DNA of 59,040 nt, counting the filler. It is 4 parts of 4 records of this genome, joined end to end, with 100 filler letters (N's around TTAATTAATTAA, not from the genome) between each part and the next. Parts side by side here need not be neighbours in the genome. Positions count along the whole stretch, not along the records: positions 28,546 to 35,417 come from SRR20825019_1672; 3 more parts are not named here. One strand, written 5' to 3'. Each line of letters starts with the position of its first letter. Position 1 is the first letter of the stretch. A program made the position numbers and the translations under genes. The notes beneath the pieces were generated by a model. That model saw only the letters and a list, made by a program, of their open reading frames with translations, was not told the DNA's origin and did not search any database. This document shows, piece after piece, positions 2,349 through 56,402 of this stretch.

Positions 2349-3170
2349 ATGGCTATCAACAACTCGATCAACACGAATGTCGGCGCCTTTTCGGCGCTGC
2401 GGAACCTGAATTCCGCGCAGAACGATCAGAGCCGCACCCAAAACCGGATTTCCACCGGTCAGAAAGTATCAGGCGCGCTGGATCAGGCATCCCTGTTTGC
2501 CATTGCCCAAAGCATCCGGGGCGAGCTCAGCGCCAATACGGCTCTGCAGCAGGGGCTGAACCAGACGTCAGGCGCGGTGAAAGTCGCGACTGCCGGCGCG
2601 ACGGCGATATCAAACCTGACCTCCGATATTCAGGGCAAGCTGGTCGAACTTTCCAATCCCGCCAACACGGCGGAGCAGCGGGGCATTCTGCAGAATGATC
2701 TGGATGCGCTTCTGGGGCAGGCTCAGGGCTTTGTCGACAACAGCACTTTCAACGGAACGAATTTGCTGGAGTCCGGCGCCGAGGATCTGAACACACTTCA
2801 GAACGGTGAAGGCGAAGTGCTGACGGTTTCGGGCCAGGGCTCCGTCGCGGACAGTCTCGCAGCGCTGGCTGCTGCCGATTTCAGCGATCCCGCTTCGGTT
2901 CTGGAAAATGAATTCACGGCCTTCCAGTCAGCCCTGAACAATTCCCTTGGCGAACTCGGGGCAAGTGGCCGCCGCATCACGGCGCAAAACGATCAGCTAC
3001 AGGGTATTGCGGATGCAACTGAGGAAGGCCTCGGAAACATCGTCGATGCCAATCTCGGACGGGAAGCCGCCCGGCTTGCGGCAGATCAGGCCCGCGGGCA
3101 ATTGAGCGCACTCTCGCTCGGCATTGCCAACCGCAGCCCGCAGGCTCTCCTCGGCCTGTTCCGCTCCTAA
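2349..3170 (+). CDS. Flagellin, short alphaproteobacterial type
   Basis: N-terminus SINTNVGAFSALRNL...RISTGQKV, STFNGTNLL, C-terminus GNIVDANLGREAARL...SLGIANRSPQALLGLFR. Confidence 0.92.
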   Translation: MAINNSINTNVGAFSALRNLNSAQNDQSRTQNRISTGQKVSGALDQASLFAIAQSIRGELSANTALQQGLNQTSGAVKVATAGATAISNLTSDIQGKLVELSNPANTAEQRGILQNDLDALLGQAQGFVDNSTFNGTNLLESGAEDLNTLQNGEGEVLTVSGQGSVADSLAALAAADFSDPASVLENEFTAFQSALNNSLGELGASGRRITAQNDQLQGIADATEEGLGNIVDANLGREAARLAADQARGQLSALSLGIANRSPQALLGLFRS

Positions 3171-3207
3171 CGGCTTCACGCCGCGTCCCAAACAGTAAAT
3201 TATAGAG

Positions 3208-3232
3208 AGCCCCGCCCTTCAGCGGGGCTTTT
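3208..3232. terminator. Rho-independent terminator between convergent flagellin and USP genes
   Basis: AGCCCCGC-ccttca-GCGGGGCT stem followed by a T-run. Confidence 0.8.
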
Positions 3233-3234
3233 GT

Positions 3235-3660
3235 TTAGCGGACGACCAGAACAGAACAGTTGGCGTGCCGCACCACCCGGGCCGCATTCGGCCCCAGCAG
3301 GTAATCCTTCAGCTCCGGACGGTGCGAGGCGATGATAATGAGGTCCGCATCGATCTCCTTCGCGGTCAGCAGCACCATCTCATAGACCGTGCCCTGACGA
3401 ACGATATGCTGCACCTGCATGCCTGATGGGACGCGCGCGGCCACCAATTCGTGCAGGCGCTTGTTCGCCTCCTTCATGACCTTTTCCACATGGTCCTTCG
3501 GGAAATACTGCCCAACGAGGCTCATTCCAAAGTCCGGCACCACAGTCATGACGGAAAGGGCCGCCCCGTGTGTCTCGGCATTGGAGATCGCCAGTGGCAG
3601 CGCCTTGCTCCAGGAGTCCTTGTCGTCCAGATCCACTGTCAAAAGGATGTGGTTGTACAT
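3235..3660 (-). CDS. Universal stress protein (TeaD-like, TRAP-associated)
   Basis: MYNHILLTVD...ADLIIIASHRP...LLGPNAARVVRHANCSVLVVR; directly downstream of the TRAP permease. Confidence 0.93.
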   Translation of the reverse strand: MYNHILLTVDLDDKDSWSKALPLAISNAETHGAALSVMTVVPDFGMSLVGQYFPKDHVEKVMKEANKRLHELVAARVPSGMQVQHIVRQGTVYEMVLLTAKEIDADLIIIASHRPELKDYLLGPNAARVVRHANCSVLVVR

Positions 3661-16437: not shown

Positions 16438-16537
16438 NNNNNNNNNNNNNNNNNNNNNNNNNNNNNNNNNNNNNNNNNNNNTTAATTAATTAANNNNNNN
16501 NNNNNNNNNNNNNNNNNNNNNNNNNNNNNNNNNNNNN
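16438..16537. other. Artificial contig spacer
   Basis: N-run / TTAATTAATTAA (stops in all six frames) / N-run, 100 nt. Confidence 0.98.
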
Positions 16538-28545: not shown

Positions 28546-31500
28546 CACGGGGCCCAGTATGGCGTGCTGCATCCCTACTACCGCCACTCTGTCAACAAAC
28601 TCCGTAATGGGGTGTTCTGGGGCCTAGGAGGGGTGGCCATCACCGCATGTATCACCCTCTCCAAGTATGAGGACTTTGACCGCGGGGTACGCTGGTCAGA
28701 AAGCTATGCCCCTCTTATCTTGGTCTGTATCCTAGGTATCGCCTTTGGGGTGTTAGGGGCCCTGTTCCCCGAGCTGCGGGTTAATAGCTCCCTCAAGGAA
28801 GCCTTTGGGGAGTTAGATATTGGTAGTATTATACACGACTCCCAGAGAGCCTTCCCCAAGGGCCTCCCCACCAACGACCTAGTATTCAGCGCACACAAGT
28901 CCATCGAATCCCACCTAGCCCCCTTCGGCAACCACCACCCCACCGAGGACGAATCCAATCGCAATATCTGCATCTTACGCCCTTTCTTTAGTAGGGTGGT
29001 GTTCCCCTCTGATGTAGAGGTATCTGCTCGGTTCCTCAGTACCTTTAGGAAGGGCTATGGGGGTGTTCCCACCGAGGCTATGACCTCCTATGCCGCCCGC
29101 ATCTACACCAAGGGCATGGCCAGATTTCGCAACAATGCCAACATCATGTACCACTTCTCCCAGTTTCTTCTATTTTATGCCCACAAGCATAGGATGGCCC
29201 TTACTGAGGTAGAGACCGTGTTGCGACTAGATAGCTGTGGTATTCTACTGGGGTACAGGGTTACACGGCTCCATATCCGCCTGAAGGGGTTCCTCAACCT
29301 GGCCGACAGCACCGTCCTCAAGCTCCTCAACTCCTCCCTACGTCTTCATAAGGAGATCTTGAGTCACATGGCACTCTTCTGGGGAAAGCTCCTCTATCAA
29401 AACGTGGATACCGTCCAGCTAGCCCACATTGCCAATCTCATCACGAGCAGGAGGGAGCAGGCTGCGGATCAGTTCCACAGGGCCCTGCAAACCCCCAACA
29501 ACAACACCCTCCTAAAATATGCCCGCTTTCTGGAGCAGGTCATGCTCGATACCAAAACGAGCAGGTCCATCAAGGACCGTATTGCGGAGGAGGCTGAGGT
29601 ACGAAGGCAGCAAACTCTGAGAGGTAAGTCAAACGTCATCGAAGCCTCAACGTTCTCTAGTAACGCCTCAGGTACCGCAGATAACAGCTACTTCGAGGAC
29701 CTAGAGCGGCAGGTGGAGGACCAGAATAGTGAGTTTGCACGCCGCACCAGCTCCATCCGAAACCTCTCCGTCACCATGTCGATTATGTTTGTTGCCTTCG
29801 TGTTGGTGGCTTCTGGATCATTGGTGTACGAGCAGCTACGCACAGCTGCCCTTTCCAATGTATATGAGAGGCAACGTGTGGCAGGAGATGCCCGTACATA
29901 CTGCGGTCTTAGCGCCTTCTACGCAAACGAAGTCCTCTTCGAGCTCAACAGTGCCAGCACAGATGGTGTCAGACTAGAGTCGCTAAGGGTATCTCTAGCC
30001 GACGCCAGCAGTAAGTTTTATGACGTACATCGGCGCCTTTCGACGGGGGACCTCTCCTCCTCGAAGGGAGAGCTTGCTGCCCATTTTACTACTGCCAGGG
30101 TGGAGGTACTAGAGCCCGACTTTACCAACTCGTCCCTTTCCAGAGATCGTACCCGTTCGGTCCTAAGCCTTTGGAACGCGGGTAATCGACTCTCTAACGT
30201 CCAAGCACAGCTTGACGTCGCACTTTTACCGCCAACTGGTACTACCACAGGTACCACCGCCTTCCTTACAGCGGATAGGAAGACAAGCGCGGTATCTGCA
30301 TCGACATTCATTGTACTCAACTTTCTTGGGGACCTCGGAGCCGCTTTAAACCAAACTGCAGTGTTGGTGGAGTCCGCGTCCATCAACGACCACCTGTTAT
30401 ACTTTTGGATTGCCACCGCGTTATTCGTCGCTTCCCAGATTATTGTATTCTTTGTGTTTACGTTGATGGTTGTGCACTTCCAACGCATTGCCTCGTCGAA
30501 GCTGTCCGCCCTTAGTCTCTTCTCCCTAATCCCTCGGTCATACCTTGAGCAGCTCCACCAGGTAAGTATGGACCGTGTGGAGCAGTTCGAGGCCGAGGTC
30601 GACGAGGACAACGGCCACATTGCCTCTTTCAATGCTACAGGGGACCAACCCAAGCCCGATGGGCCCATCCCCAGTAGTACATCGGTAAGCCGACACACAG
30701 CCGCCTCCTTATCCCCCCAGCCAGGCAGGGCTGCACCCCCCACCCCCACCCGACTCAAGGATCTCACTAGCGACGGTAAGGCCCTTGAGGTTGCCCGCCC
30801 TGTTAGCGATATGGCCTCCTGGGAGGTTGTGGAGCAGATCGACGACAAGCATAGTGAGTCCTCTTGGGATGGGGACCAGTCATCGGAGGATGCGCCCCTT
30901 ATTAAAAATTGGGTATCGGACGGGTTCAAATATTTTTGGAAGGGTCTCATGCGGCAGTTATTCATACTTAGCATCGCCCTCATCACCGTCGCACTCGTCG
31001 CCGCAGTATTTGGGCTTGTGTACCACATGGGCATCGTTTCCTCCAATCTTGCTGAGGCCTATGCTGACCGATCCGACTATGAGAGGGCACACAGTTCTAT
31101 GTATACGTCCATCAACGACCTTACCCGCTGTGGTCAGGGGTACACCATTGACGGGGATGTCTCCTACCTGCGATGCTACTACCTCGAAAGAGAGAGTGAG
31201 TATAGGGTAGATAGGACATACTCAGCTATGCGCGATAAGGAGAAGAACCCAACCGCACTGCTACTCCTCTCCCAGATGCGAGATGTGGCTGCGTCGATGA
31301 TTACCCGCCAGACCACCGCCATATGGCTCACCTCGGAGGCATACAACCTCACTTCCACCTACAGCGCACTCTTACACTCACTGGGAGCTTCTCGAGGGGG
31401 CCCACTACTTAATGCCACCAGTGTCTCCGCGGTGGTGAGTGCTGCCTTTGCTAGCTTTGCGGTCAACCCTAGCCCTGCCCCATATGTCGACAGAGATGTA

Positions 31501-34500
31501 TCACTTGGCCTGTCATTTGACCAGAAACTAGCCGTCGCACAGTCCCTCCTTAACGACGAGCTTTACACCGCCCACTACGACCTCTTCTGCCGCCTCCAAC
31601 AGCAGGTGCTATCTATTTCATCTGTCGGCCAAGACGTGGATGCTCTCTACGACTCAGTCCAGCGGCTAGCTCTTGCCACTGTCATCCTTGGCTTGCTGGT
31701 TGTAGTCTTCGCCATGCTTATGTTCCGTGCCTACCACCACACCAGTAGGGGTGTATCAGGTGTTGTTGCTAAGGTGGGTGCTACCATAACAGGAATCCTA
31801 ATGTTGTTCGTCGTCATCCTCACCGCCATCTCGTGGTCCCACGTGCATACCGTCATGCACTCGTATGGTGTGGTCACCGACCTAGGAAAGGTCCGCAACA
31901 CTACCACCGCATCAATGGTGCTCCCTCTCATCCACAGCCGGGCATACGCCCAATTCGGAGCCAAGCTGTACTTCCACCGATTCACAAGCACTGTCACTGA
32001 TGACCTTCTCGACGACGGCCTCGATGTAGTGAGGGGGGCATTGCTCACAGGAGGGGAGGCTAGTGTTGAGCTTCTCAATGACATAGTGGCGGCCCGCCGT
32101 CGCAGTGATGCGGTGCGGGTACAGCTGGATGCATCCATCCTACTTGCCTCCTGGGGGTACTACGGATCTAACTCCACAGACGACTCGGGAGGGTCAGGGA
32201 ACTCACTGGGTGTTAGGGAGCTCTACGCGGCAGGTTCGTATGCCTACAGCCGAGAATATGAGAGTGACTACGAGACAGACATGCTACGCTTCGGCGTGGG
32301 CCCGACCCTCTACTCCAACTCCACCTTCGACCGCTACAACCTCACCAATGCCGAGCAGATCTACCTAGCTAAACACAATGTAGCCAGCGTCCGTATGCTG
32401 CTAAACGTCCAGAGTCTCCGGGCCCGTATCGACAGCGTGGTAGACGGTGCCATCTTCACCTTTGTGTCCCTGGCCGACAATAGCGCTGCTGCCCTGAGGA
32501 CAATGGCCACCGCGTCCATTATTGCCGGTATTATATTAATATTCATAGGCTCCTTGTGCGGTATGTTGGGCGTGTTCGAAACAATGCAGCGCAGCTTCTC
32601 CACCACATGGGTCTCATCGGGCGGCACTGCGAGGCAGTCTGATGTGACCACATCCGATGCCAACGGGGAGGGTCGTACGGCTCTATTTGCCAATGTAGTC
32701 TTCAAAACCAGGATCGCCCTTATCATCGTCTCCTTCATGTTTGCCTTGTTGTATTGTGTGGACATCGTGTCTATGGTGTCATCCTTGCAGCGGCCCCATC
32801 GCATCAACCTGGCCTCCTCCCAGGAGGTACGCCTTGTGCGGTCTATGGTCCTCACACAGAATGCCTTCCAGGGCATCGTCACCGACACCCCTACTGTCCA
32901 GAGTATATCCGAATCCAGTAACGTAATGACCACTGAGCGGTACGAGCTATACTTAGGCCCCATTGGGGGTGGTCGCTTCGATGTCGGCCCCAACCCCGAG
33001 TACCTATTCGGCAACATGGTATACGACCAACAACAGTATAAGAGCGATTGTGCATTCCGCACAGCAAATGTTAATATTGTTGGTAACAACCCCGCGGCCC
33101 TTCCTGTTCTCTCGTCCTTGGCACCGTATGGTACTACGCTACCCACCACAGTAAGCACCGCCTTTATGTCTCTTGGGGTGGAGGATGCCGTCACACAATG
33201 GCTAGCAGCCTTCAACACCATCGTAACCGCACTAAGCGAGAAGGGTTCACTGACAATACCGTCTCTCATAGCTGTCTGGCGCAACCCCCTCGTGGCTACA
33301 CTAAAACTTGTGGTCGACGGCCTCAGCGATTCCACTACCATGTTTGTGGATGCTGCTGACGATCGCAACAATGTCTACCGAGATATACGATCTGCCATCA
33401 CAGCCGTGGTCCTAGCTATTATTGTCATTGAGCTCGTTTTCGTCTTCCGCCCGATGATATCCCTTCTCATCAAGGAAGAGGAGGGCACCAAGCTTCTCCT
33501 GAGAATGATCCCCGAGCAGGTCCGCCTCGAAGTCCCTGCAATCGCCGAGTATCTAGAAACCGGTGCCGTAACCCAGAATGAGAAGCTCCAGAAGATCAAT
33601 GAGGTGGTAACCGAAATGTCAACCGTATCCCTGATTGTTTGCAATAGTAAGGGTGTTATCGAGGGGGCGTCCCAAGCGGCATTGGAGGAGTTTGGATACC
33701 TCTCCTCGGACCTCCTCGGTCATAATGTAAAGATGCTCATGCCTGACTCCGTCGCACAACGCCACGATGCTTACCTAGCGCGGTATCGACAAACTGGAAT
33801 AAAGAGGGTAATCGACCGATCAAGGCGTGTTACGGCCTGTCGCAAGGACGGCTCCTCCTTCGTAGCCGAGATCCTCATAAGGGAGTTTAACCGCCACGGT
33901 GCCGAAAGTACGTACCTAGGCTTTATTCGAAATGCCACCGCTGAAGTTGAATTCGAGAAGGTAACCCGCATCAACGAGGCTGTCTCCGAGATGTCCAACA
34001 CTCCTGTCGTCGTCATCGACCCCAAGGGCTATATCCGCCGCGTGAACAAGGCCGCCACAGATACCTTTGGATTCACATCCGCTGAGTTAATAGGTGAGAA
34101 TGTAACCACCCTGATGCCCCGTGATATTGCGAGAGAGCACGATGAGTACCTGGAAGAGTACCAACGTACAAAGCGTAAGACGGTAGTGGGGGCTAGCCGC
34201 ACCCTTAGGGCCCGCCGTAAGACGGGGGAGATCTTCCCCATGGAACTCACGGTGCGGGAGCTATCCGACGATAAGGGTACCTCCCAGTATTTTATCGGAT
34301 ATATCAAGGATATCACCCCCCAGCTACGATTTAGCCAGAGTGTGTTGTCCAACGAGGCCATCATCGAGATCAGTCCCACCCCCGTCGTAGGCATCCTGCC
34401 CTCGGGTGAGATCAACCTCTTCTCCCCCGCAGCCCAGGCAGCATGGGGGTACGACCACGACGAAGTAATGGGTCAGAACGTATCCATGCTTATGAACGAC

Positions 34501-35417
34501 GAAGACGCCGAGCACCACAACGATTACCTACTACGGTACCAGCGAACACGAGAGAAGAGGGTCATTGGCCACACGCAGATGTTCAAGGGTAAGCGTAAGA
34601 GTGGGGAGTTGTTCCTGTTGGAGGCCAATATTCAGGAGGTGCAGCGGGCCGACCATGTTATCTACATAGGGTTTATGAGGGACCTTACCGATGAGCGGTA
34701 CTCCCGCCATGGTGCCCGCACATACCGAGCAATGTTCCTATCTACCCCTGCTGCCGTGGTGGTCACCGACGAGCTAGGCTCCGTGACACATTTTAACCCT
34801 GCTGCAGAGAAGCTACTGGGGTACATGTACGATCAAGTGGTCGGTCACAATGTCAAGATGCTGATGCCTGACGATCTGGCCTTTGCACACGATGCCCACA
34901 TGGAGCGGTACAACCAAACCGGCATCAAGTCGGTACTGGGCCAGCGACGCCGTACCGTAGCCAGACATGCCAATGGGGACACCCTTACCGTCGAGCTGCA
35001 GGTACACGAGTTGACCATTCCCGATGCACTATCCGATGCGGGTAGTAGGAAGCAGTACTATGCATACTTCCGAGACGTAGCCGAGGAGGTATCCCTTGCC
35101 AAGGCCAACAGTGCCAACGACGCCATCCTTGCCCTCTGCACCATTCCCATGCTCAGCATCAACAAGTTTGGAAAAGTGCTGGCTATCAATGCGGCAGGAT
35201 CCGCTGCCTTTGGGTACGATGCCGATGAAGTGATTGGAGAAAATGTAAGCATATTGTGCCCTCCCTCCATCGCACCTCACCACGACGGGTACCTCCAACG
35301 GTACCGCGAGACTAGAGCTAAGCGTATTCTTGGCAGTACTCGTACTGTCCACTACAGACGTAAGGACGGTACCCTCGTCCCTGCCGAGATCAAGGTGCAG
35401 GAGGTCGACGTTACCAC
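28546..35417 (+). CDS. Giant TmcB-like multi-pass membrane protein with at least 5 tandem FixL-type PAS domains (partial at both ends, probably eukaryotic)
   Basis: One open frame across the contig. PYY..N.LR TM motif, TPR-like LLKYARFLEQVMLD, several paired TM helices with LFSLIP and LLRMIP linkers, then five G.NV..L[MC]...H..[YH]...Y..T....[VI][GD]..R repeats. Confidence 0.85.
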
Positions 35418-35517
35418 NNNNNNNNNNNNNNNNNNNNNNNNNNNNNNNNNNNNNNNNNNNNTTAATTAATTAANNNNNNNNNNNNNNNNNNNNNNNNNNN
35501 NNNNNNNNNNNNNNNNN
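35418..35517. other. Artificial contig spacer
   Basis: N-run / TTAATTAATTAA / N-run. Confidence 0.98.
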
Positions 35518-44799: not shown

Positions 44800-45375
44800 T
44801 TATTTATCTTGACTAGCTTGTTTTGCAATTAATTGTAATTTAACAATTGGAGTAATAATAGTTGATACAATTTTTCTATTAATTGCTTCTTTAGTTTTTA
44901 ATTTAAGTAATTTATTTAATAAAGTATGTGTAATATATTGATTATCAATCTTAGCTAATAATAAAGTAAAAGGAGCTAATTTTGCTACTTTATTTATAGA
45001 TGCTATTGGATCAAGATTTTGATCATTTGAATAAATAATAACAACATTATTATTAAAAGCATTACGTAGAGCAAATATTTCATTTGGTATTAAAATATTT
45101 TTACTATTAGTTTCATTTGATTTAGTATCAAGTGATTTTGTATTATTTAATAATTTAATTAATAATTGAGTAATATAAATAGATTTTAATTTATTACTTT
45201 GTTGTTTTGGTACTAAAGAAATATTTAAATCATTATTACGAATAGAGTTATATAATTCAGTTTGTTTTTCCTGATTTAAATCATCAATTTGTGCTAATAC
45301 AAAAAAAGAACTATTATTTATATTATTAATAAGATGTTTTGTACCTAGTATACTTTTTCTTTTACGTAAATTCAT
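44800..45375 (-). CDS. rpl10: Probable ribosomal protein L10 (uL10), divergent
   Basis: Basic N-terminus, FFVLAQIDDLN...EL...IR, FNNNVVIIYS, LLLAKIDNQYI...KL; size fits. Similarity judged by eye only. Confidence 0.62.
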   Translation of the reverse strand: MNLRKRKSILGTKHLINNINNSSFFVLAQIDDLNQEKQTELYNSIRNNDLNISLVPKQQSNKLKSIYITQLLIKLLNNTKSLDTKSNETNSKNILIPNEIFALRNAFNNNVVIIYSNDQNLDPIASINKVAKLAPFTLLLAKIDNQYITHTLLNKLLKLKTKEAINRKIVSTIITPIVKLQLIAKQASQDK

Positions 45376-55059: not shown

Positions 55060-55521
55060 ATGAACCAAAACTTCAACCTGAAACACTATTTTCCTCAAAA
55101 CTTCTTTTACGAAGAAGTGAAACTCTACGAATCTATGATAACACAGTGCATGACTAATGACGAGTATATCAGTTGGAAAAAGTATAATAGATACAAGAAA
55201 CTATTCGTTTTGTACTTTATTTTTCTTTACTTGATAGCCGAATGTTGTACAAGGGATACACAAAATATTATTGGTCCAATGCTTATGACATCAATAGGTA
55301 TCTGAGGTTTTCATCAGTTAGATATTCTTGAGTTTAGTGTTAAATATGGGAAAGAATACTATTGTAGTCCTATAACAGTTCGTAAAACTCCAGTAATGAA
55401 AAGACTCTCGAATATTTTCAAAGCCATTCAATTACTAAGTCCTTTCGCGTTATTTTTAATAGCAATTTTTGCAACTCTGTTAGTATGATACTATATATAT
55501 AAAGCTATGATACCAGGGTAA
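55060..55521 (+). CDS. Orphan mitochondrial ORF, 153 aa under UGA=Trp, 2-3 hydrophobic segments
   Basis: Open ATG to TAA through two TGA codons; less AT-rich than the flanks; shares motifs with the ORF at 55911-56402. Confidence 0.65.
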
Positions 55522-55910: not shown

Positions 55911-56402
55911 CTAAATGGAGAGATATCTTTCTAAGGGTGACAATTTCTCCGGATACATGGGCTCGTATATCCCGTTATATGTTGTAATAACACCCCCACA
56001 AGCAAGGATGGAAGCGCCCACTGGCTTGAACAAGTGGCTAGTTTTTACAGCACTTGTAAAAAGAGTTTCTATACCTCGTGTTGGGTTAGTTCGTGTTATA
56101 AAGTAAGTATATCCTACTTCTACATTAAAACGTAGTAAAACACTTTGATTAATTGCAAATACAATTAGCAACAGCATAATTACATTAAATACAATATTAT
56201 TTATAACAGTCCCATAGAGTTGAAGGCCAGTTAACCTAGTAAAAATATAAAAAATATAACATGGCATCAGCGCTGAATTGATTTTCGATCTGCGATCGAA
56301 TCAGGTTTCATATTTACTATAACCCATATAATCTCGCAGCATGCTATAATATAATTGATTCTCAGAATTTAGAATCCTTTTAAACTTGTTAATTAAATTC
56401 AT
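55911..56402 (-). CDS. Orphan mitochondrial ORF, 163 aa under UGA=Trp (possibly frameshifted near its end)
   Basis: ATG at 56402 (MNLINKFKRIL...) reads through one TGA into the ORF-track protein and ends at TAG 55911. Confidence 0.6.

Follow-up and report, generated by a model that had tools for sequence, protein, structure and literature searches.

A candidate multi-heme receptor, very probably euglenozoan, with a long array of FixL-type PAS domains on a TmcB-type membrane protein

Introduction

What would a eukaryotic membrane protein do with a long row of FixL-type PAS domains, and why would their number be kept? This question is raised by the third of four unrelated contigs that were strung together, with N-linkers at 16438, 28446 and 35418, into the 59,040-nucleotide stretch of DNA analyzed here (the window). 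The contig (28546-35417) holds on its plus strand, to which all features described for it below belong, a single reading frame of 2290 residues, without stop or intron and open at both ends, whose 3' part had been interpreted in a first-pass annotation as at least five tandem FixL-type heme-PAS domains, with differently tuned sites, on a probably eukaryotic membrane receptor. The frame belongs to a family of proteins of approximately 3500 residues, which end in an array of usually 13 FixL-type PAS domains and contain no enzyme. The domain is a heme-PAS of the FixL/DosP type, and the protein as a whole is not a FixL.

The five repeats of the window and the continuation of the gene

The five His codons are found where the first-pass annotation had placed them, at 33763, 34138, 34516, 34888 and 35281, all of them CAC and within the peptides that it had quoted, and the distal column, which corresponds to Arg220 of BjFixL, reads Arg, Arg, Gln, Arg, Arg in repeats 1 to 5, again as described. 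The repeats extend over 33592..33960, 33967..34335, 34351..34698 (the one with Gln at the distal Arg position), 34720..35103 and 35113..35417, the last being truncated by the end of the contig at the N-linker at 35418; repeats 2-5 share 33-38% identity with repeat 1. The assignment to FixL-type PAS domains is borne out by Pfam, which gives five PAS stretches (PF00989, E 2e-51), and by the best sequence matches in the PDB, which are FixL and DosP (8js5, E 4e-19; 1d06, E 2e-18). Structural comparison to FixL covers repeat 1, the AlphaFold model of which superposes on the O2-bound FixL heme domain 1dp6 with Z 19.5 and a root-mean-square deviation (rmsd) of 1.4 Å over 112 aligned residues, the top of 48161 chains, with FixL being the best match by Foldseek as well (E 7e-9).

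By comparison with relatives, about 250 residues of the window protein are absent at the N-terminus, where its residue 1 aligns with residue 254 of the relative P0003, and about 1020 at the C-terminus. An assembly artefact was rejected, as a single contig of a public run (X1) covers all 6872 bases gap-free and the differences between samples are mostly synonymous (37 of the 40 listed, with three more outside this listing). A bacterial origin of the contig was rejected on account of the TPR_TmcB domain and the eukaryotic relatives, and the proposal of a eukaryotic membrane protein is upheld. Contigs of two further runs from two studies (X3 and X4, which we guess to be RNA runs) extend 3290 and 3328 bases beyond 35417, where the relatives predict 3031-3463 further coding bases (median 3079) and where eight more repeats would need about 3.3 kb. 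Past 35417 these runs contain a 36-base piece similar to the His motif found in repeat 5, and also a loose end whose reading resembles a further PAS strand. Judged from the relatives and the length of this extension, the gene probably encodes 13 repeats when whole.

Count, length and ending of the array in relatives

Searching with the PAS region returned 201 matches, 120 of them listed, and the first 67 of these lie much higher in score than the others. The architecture recurs in other protist proteins, namely those of Euglenozoa, mostly with 13 repeats: 13 repeat matches are present in 47 of the 68 proteins examined, and exactly 13 repeats in 55 of the 97 proteins in which PAS repeats follow module 4, the last module of the membrane part, these counts including isoforms and near-identical members of clusters. 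Module 4 is followed by a stretch of 1620-1692 residues in 54 of the 97, by a shorter one in 23 and by a longer one in 20, the tails of the latter being lengthened by insertions. Many of the short arrays look cut off, and P0060, with 7 repeats, clusters with the 13-repeat P0124. Three isoforms of the euglenid Entosiphon carry 11 repeats, with an internal deletion in the last. The repeat period is tight, with a median of 125 residues and a 5-95% range of 124-131, and in 42 intact arrays the C-terminus lies 0-65 residues past repeat 13.

The first-pass annotation had considered that more PAS domains or an output domain may lie beyond the contig end; the former are present in most full-length relatives, whereas no output domain was found in those scanned. 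No catalytic Pfam family was detected in six full-length members or in a scan of 18 members, no HisKA/HATPase follows the heme-PAS domains in the six or among the families listed for the 18, and the class III cyclase domain (Guanylate_cyc) gave no match in either set.

Within one protein the repeats share 29-41% identity and are as divergent from each other as from the repeats of other proteins, so that the array has to be old, and a recent tandem duplication was rejected on the same identity values. At least four old paralogue clades emerge from a FastTree phylogeny of the membrane part (74 sequences, rooted at the midpoint), and each of them joins diplonemid and prokinetoplastid sequences and has members with 13 repeats. 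The named members are the diplonemids Diplonema papillatum (annotated copies KAJ9448465.1 and KAJ9468879.1), D. japonicum, Rhynchopus, Lacrimia, Flectonema, Namystynia and Artemidia, the prokinetoplastid Papus and the euglenid Entosiphon, while the prefixes Hpha, Sspe and PhF_6 presumably stand for Hemistasia, Sulcionema and Apiculatamorpha. The window protein groups with the environmental sequences P0003 and P0004 (support 0.93), in a clade with Entosiphon, PhF_6 and Hpha entries, and is held with high confidence to be euglenozoan. Since the gene has no introns, a kinetoplastid host is suggested, which we regard as reasonably probable. Two entries from Colponema (P0040, P0053) are placed among the euglenozoan repeats; Colponema is cultured on kinetoplastid prey, and these entries, possibly prey contamination, were not counted as a second lineage. 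Among the 120 listed of the 201 matches there is no named trypanosomatid or Bodo entry, which is no evidence of absence. In a metagenome scan 0 of 80 loci matched the membrane part, the list being filled by FixL-like PAS genes with at most four His-PAS repeats per frame. Two word-based searches with the N-terminal region recovered no more than 3 and 4 members and cannot define the range of the family.

The heme site and its variation along the array

Residues were counted in 42 arrays with 13 clean repeats (546 repeats). Excluded from this set were P0046 (aberrant tail), P0050 (fragmented), P0052 (membrane part unmatched) and the degenerate P0056, P0064 and P0066, and the His-poor paralogue clades stand outside the count. 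The roles of the heme-site residues were taken from PMC10765370, for His200 and Arg220 of FixL, from PMC11543664, according to which O2 binding by DosP requires Arg97, and from PMC10468136, on FixL-like domains without the His. No column of the alignment varies less than the proximal His, which is present in 544 of 546 repeats, ahead of the next best Gly (526) and Tyr (519) and of all Gly, Asn and Tyr residues with a structural role. For the distal Arg the figure is 428 of 546, and the positions of Ile215 and Ile216 of FixL remain hydrophobic in the repeats of the relatives, with the position of His214 being poorly kept (158 of 546). At the position of DosP Met95 there is Thr, Ser or Lys, and no second axial ligand is conserved. 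Because the His, the distal Arg and the hydrophobic distal positions are all conserved, it is very likely, as far as can be judged from sequence, that the repeats bind heme.

The proposal of differently tuned sites, and with it that of a graded array, fared less well and appears only weakly supported, because the Gln of repeat 3 is not conserved: at position 3 there is Arg in 33 of the 42 relatives and Gln in 1. The repeats are also weakly position-specific, with the best match in another protein standing at the same position in 22% of comparisons vs 7.7% by chance, and position 11 alone is systematically poor in Arg (present in 16 of 42; chi-square p 5e-9, uncorrected for kinship). In favor of the proposal is the mixed Arg occupancy, as there are 7-13 Arg sites per protein and all 13 in only 3 of 42. 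Arrays of mixed Arg occupancy are thus the rule, without their pattern being fixed.

The membrane part and its junctions

The contig opens with the last two helices of an N-terminal multi-pass membrane domain (28585..28779; model helices 14-45 and 54-78, supported by hydropathy), of which full-length relatives have several more before the TPR region. A Foldseek search with the N-terminal model gave nothing at E <= 0.001, and a likeness to the TRP-like/FLC family PF06011 is a weak lead, with an Atlas score of 0.84 against a lead threshold of 0.9 and with PF06011 being absent among the 25 families listed in the 18-member scan. There follows a cytoplasmic helical-repeat domain (29005..29625), which includes TPR_TmcB (29320-29601; PF25474, E 1.5e-9, above cut-off). 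TPR-type proteins top its Foldseek list, none of them at E <= 0.001. TPR_TmcB is present in 18 of 18 aligned proteins, and the top three Atlas clusters are TmcB/TmcC, the "tiny macrocysts" proteins of Dictyostelium. Between the TPR and the first module no PAS domain was found in the window or in relatives.

The remainder of the membrane part consists of four modules, each built as transmembrane (TM) helix, four-helix bundle and TM helix, in models that were made from 25-sequence alignments and have a mean pLDDT of 81 and 72. Module 1 (29743..30525) is homologous to module 4 (32683..33495) by hhalign (96%, E 2e-9), and module 2 (30928..31755) to module 3 (31753..32595; 99%, E 1e-20), giving the order A-B-B-A, in which homology between the types was not shown (hhalign 4-20%). 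Modules 1 and 2 are separated by a low-complexity, probably disordered cytoplasmic linker (30613..30927; pLDDT under 50, unconserved), and module 3 packs against module 2 in the model. The fold of module 1 matches sensor domains of chemoreceptors and kinases (8bsa, Z 12.0; 6s18, Z 11.7; NarQ 5iji, Z 11.1, 199 aligned), all within the range of generic bundles. Module 4 matches 4k0d (Z 13.1, rmsd 2.6, 144 aligned), module 2 matches 3va9 (Z 12.0, rmsd 2.4, 126 aligned), and modules 2 and 3 together match NasR 4akk (Z 15.8, rmsd 4.1, 274 aligned) as well as PilJ 8wdf and McpS 2yfa. When the module profiles were searched against 1831 family and non-family sequences, the best non-family match of the type B modules was the CHASE3 domain of the hybrid histidine kinase P0091 (module 2, E 2e-3; module 3, E 2e-4), with both CHASE3 motifs in register, which is better evidence than the matches in fold. 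The single-sequence Pfam search gave no match to CHASE3 (PF05227), and no Pfam sensor family passes the cut-off in the window or in the 18-member scan, in which PilJ is matched weakly by two members (best E 0.24). Modules 1 and 4 have a conserved small-x-x-Arg motif after the first TM helix; in the nitrate sensors NarX and NarQ, the Arg motif of the P-box binds nitrate.

Two junctions stand out. J1 (30475..30594) is a conserved helix-Pro-helix behind the membrane segment of module 1, and J4 (33451..33570), which leads from the last TM helix to the PAS array, is highly conserved. Class III cyclase domains are preceded by a helix that couples their membrane and catalytic parts (PMC9433096), and a profile of nine such pre-cyclase segments fell best on J1 or J4 in 18 of the 37 members for which it reported a match (74 searched, the members being related to one another). 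The likeness of these segments to the pre-cyclase helix, weak in the case of J1, is suggestive only.

Relation to known systems and to other His-PAS arrays

With FixL and DosP the repeats have in common the PAS fold, the proximal His in the F-helix, the distal Arg and the hydrophobic distal residues, whereas FixL and DosP have one heme-PAS followed by a histidine kinase or phosphodiesterase, in place of about 13 on a eukaryotic membrane scaffold without a catalytic domain. The GenBank name "Sensor protein FixL" of the Diplonema protein KAJ9448465.1 rests on the PAS match. Murthy et al. are said to have described in 2012 nine FixL homologues of Chlamydomonas (FXL1-FXL9), large membrane proteins with a single heme-PAS that reportedly bind heme and O2 via the His; if so, they would set a direct precedent for the binding of heme by a eukaryotic relative. 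With the TmcB/TmcC-type proteins (PF25474) the family shares the N-terminal multi-pass domain, TPR_TmcB and the further TM modules, including module 4, whose profile matches residues 3112-3356 of the canonical TmcB-type P0094 (E 1e-13). In P0094, unlike here, the PAS domain sits after the TPR and the protein ends at module 4, where the present family has the 13 PAS domains appended. The TM-bundle-TM layout is that of CHASE3, NarX/NarQ-PilJ, NIT and chemoreceptor ligand-binding domains, from which the four bundles per chain, the A-B-B-A order and the insertions differ.

FAP49 and FAP154 of Chlamydomonas, described in PMC9561859 as abundant ciliary proteins with seven TM helices, a central PAS and four or more TM helices, would by their architecture belong to the TmcB family; in fap47 mutants they are greatly reduced and phototaxis is apparently defective (PMC6548120). 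In Vibrio vulnificus, Aer2 serves as a tri-PAS-heme O2 sensor in which each of the three domains binds heme, the O2 affinities being similar and the roles position-specific (PMC10107281). From the present array it differs by its class of heme-PAS (E-eta His, distal Trp), its three domains and its MCP output.

Other His-PAS arrays came to light among the matches. Nucleotide cyclases follow 5-7 His-PAS units in the P0148 cluster (with KAL7466838.1 of the diatom Conticribra weissflogii, 7 His), P0059 and P0171, which by sequence are candidate multi-heme O2-regulated cyclases of diatoms and others. The P0168 cluster, with an entry of Mucochytrium quahogii, is a hybrid histidine kinase whose 7 His-PAS repeats make up a clade of their own. 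An LtrA-like membrane domain is followed by 8 or 5 His-PAS units and no catalytic domain in P0141 and P0202, a second array without output on another scaffold. P0167 has an MCP signalling domain after 6 His-PAS units, P0191 a SpoIIE phosphatase after 5, the soluble P0052 has 10 and no other family, and P0150, a hybrid histidine kinase of 4799 residues, has 32 PAS repeats without the His. In a PAS tree of low support the bacterial, diatom, Mucochytrium and LtrA repeats fall mostly apart from the euglenozoan ones.

The 13-repeat architecture was not found described in the literature searched, which included few subscription journals and no supplements, and tables of diplonemid genome papers may list the proteins; the parts available of PMC2914791, PMC7729029, PMC3634410, PMC4496561, PMC3820574 and PMC11244166 do not describe the family.

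Models of function

The model that we somewhat favor is that of a multi-input euglenozoan receptor of the TmcB type, in which external solutes would be bound by the bundles, O2 or a related gas would be sensed by the cytosolic multi-heme array, and signalling would proceed via partners. In this model, each intact repeat would bind one heme through the F-helix His and most would hold O2 through the distal Arg, a step in which we have great confidence. With moderate confidence, the array would lie in the cytosol and report O2 (or else NO, CO or its loading with heme), the four bundles would face the outside or a lumen and bind small solutes in the manner of bacterial CHASE3 and chemoreceptor domains, and the gas and solute inputs would meet at the last TM helix and J4. 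More tentatively, many hemes of broadly similar affinity may sum to a larger or steeper response than that of one heme, the signal may exit through partners, possibly a nucleotide cyclase, at the TPR and the J1/J4 helices, or else through the N-terminal membrane domain, and the receptor may reside in the flagellar or plasma membrane. Signalling through partners is invoked because the protein has no enzyme. What speaks most for sensing is the fusion, in other proteins, of related His-PAS arrays of 4-8 units to cyclases, histidine kinases, an MCP domain and a phosphatase. The sensor-type bundles ahead of the array also count in its favor, as do the ciliary abundance of FAP49 and FAP154, putative TmcB relatives, and the apparent phototaxis defect of fap47 mutants. 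Several observations weigh against the receptor model. As there is no output domain, the path of the signal has to be inferred; FixL and DosP make do with a single heme, so that sensing alone leaves the fixed 13 unexplained; and the paralogues P0056, P0061, P0064-P0067, P0058 and P0136 keep the length and spacing of about 13 units with the His in 3-6 repeats. In addition, the position of Arg206, which is linked to signal transduction in FixL, holds Arg in 201 of 546 repeats, the cyclase-transducer likeness of J1 and J4 gave no significant single match, and the Z-scores of 11-13 of the bundles can be reached by helical bundles without kinship; designed bundles score equally high, and the fold alone therefore proves little for kinship with sensors.

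The alternatives differ in what they make of the fixed count and of the His. A fixed-length ruler or tether of 13 x 125 residues, leading from the membrane to a cytoskeletal or flagellar structure, with the heme as a regulatory addition dropped in some paralogues, is an unlikely reading, the strongest argument for which is that the length outlasts the loss of the His: the 1620-1692-residue stretch takes in His-poor paralogues, the period is tight, and the count is kept across the old clades at low identity between repeats. The joint loss of Chlamydomonas FAP49/72/154 and FAP47 from axonemes (PMC6548120) fits such a role. A ruler would not need the His at 544 of 546 sites, however, Entosiphon has 11 repeats, and insertions lengthen 20 of the 97 tails. 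(The numerical coincidence of 13 repeats with 13 microtubule protofilaments was set aside as numerology.) A membrane-anchored heme/O2 buffer or NO sink, with 13 hemes per chain in several paralogues and with bundles that regulate or localize it, would account for the high copy number, the near-absolute His, which suffices for heme binding where the Arg varies (428 of 546), the weak positional specialization and the missing output domain. To a store, though, neither a fixed count of 13 nor a receptor-like membrane part of 1900 residues brings any gain, FixL-type domains are known as sensors, and elsewhere cyclases and kinases are joined to homologous arrays, which makes this reading quite improbable. 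The tether and the buffer are not exclusive of each other.

Thirteen serial hemes on a polytopic membrane protein might also bring to mind an electron wire of many hemes, or a redox capacitor, to which the membrane domain is coupled; yet a FixL-type site has one His and an open distal face, no second axial ligand is conserved, and with one heme per 125-residue domain the hemes would be too distant for fast transfer, so that we give this idea hardly any weight. Just as little is given to the repeats being heme-free PAS scaffolds with a structural His, for which one can cite the existence of His-poor paralogues and the approximately 40% of the FixL cluster that lack the His and still fold (PMC10468136); here the His is conserved above the structural glycines and asparagine of the fold, and the distal Arg and hydrophobic distal residues are conserved along with it.

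Other contigs of the window

Positions 1-28445 of the window hold two bacterial-type contigs of about 60% GC, with genes that, by names read from the sequence, are fumarase-like, flagellin-like, a TRAP transporter, an Mla-type ABC transporter, a ketoacyl synthase and a dehydrogenase. Positions 35518-59040 are a protist mitochondrial contig, AT-rich and dense in genes, which was read with TGA as Trp and carries nad1, nad11, cox3, ccmF, ccmC, ccmB, ccmA, nad4, cox2, nad8, sdhB, nad2, rpl11, rps12, rpl6, rps8, rps14 and two LAGLIDADG-type open reading frames (ORFs). Pfam confirms ccmB, the ABC ATPase, the Fe-S protein, rpl11 and one LAGLIDADG, the other names being read from the sequences. An ORF at a possible rpl10 site (44800-45375) has no Pfam match, and two more, at 55060-55521 (plus strand, 153 residues) and 55911-56402 (minus strand, 163 residues), match no convincing Pfam family. 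The gene set of this contig suggests an early-branching lineage that is not the host of the PAS gene.

Significance

Direct O2 sensing by free-living protists is, to our knowledge, largely an open field, for which the family provides a concrete, testable sensor candidate in diplonemids. The characterized tandem heme-PAS array that was found has three domains, and an array of 13 that was kept across old duplications poses the question of why its count and length are fixed. Being small and soluble, single repeats lend themselves to immediate tests of heme and gas binding. The models resolve the TmcB-type membrane region into repeated modules of a bacterial sensor style and thereby offer a structural hypothesis for a wide eukaryotic family. 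In a wider scenario, which is doubtful at present, the last common ancestor of diplonemids and kinetoplastids, or perhaps of all Euglenozoa, would have built a fixed rod of 13 heme-PAS domains, at once a gas array and a length-defined tether, that coupled O2 and solutes to flagellar behavior through a cyclase-like transducer that had lost its catalytic part, and long His-PAS arrays would then have arisen separately several times in protists, as in the diatom cyclases, the Mucochytrium kinase and the LtrA-domain proteins. If this were true, multi-heme PAS antennas would be a general, as yet unstudied means by which unicellular eukaryotes sense O2.

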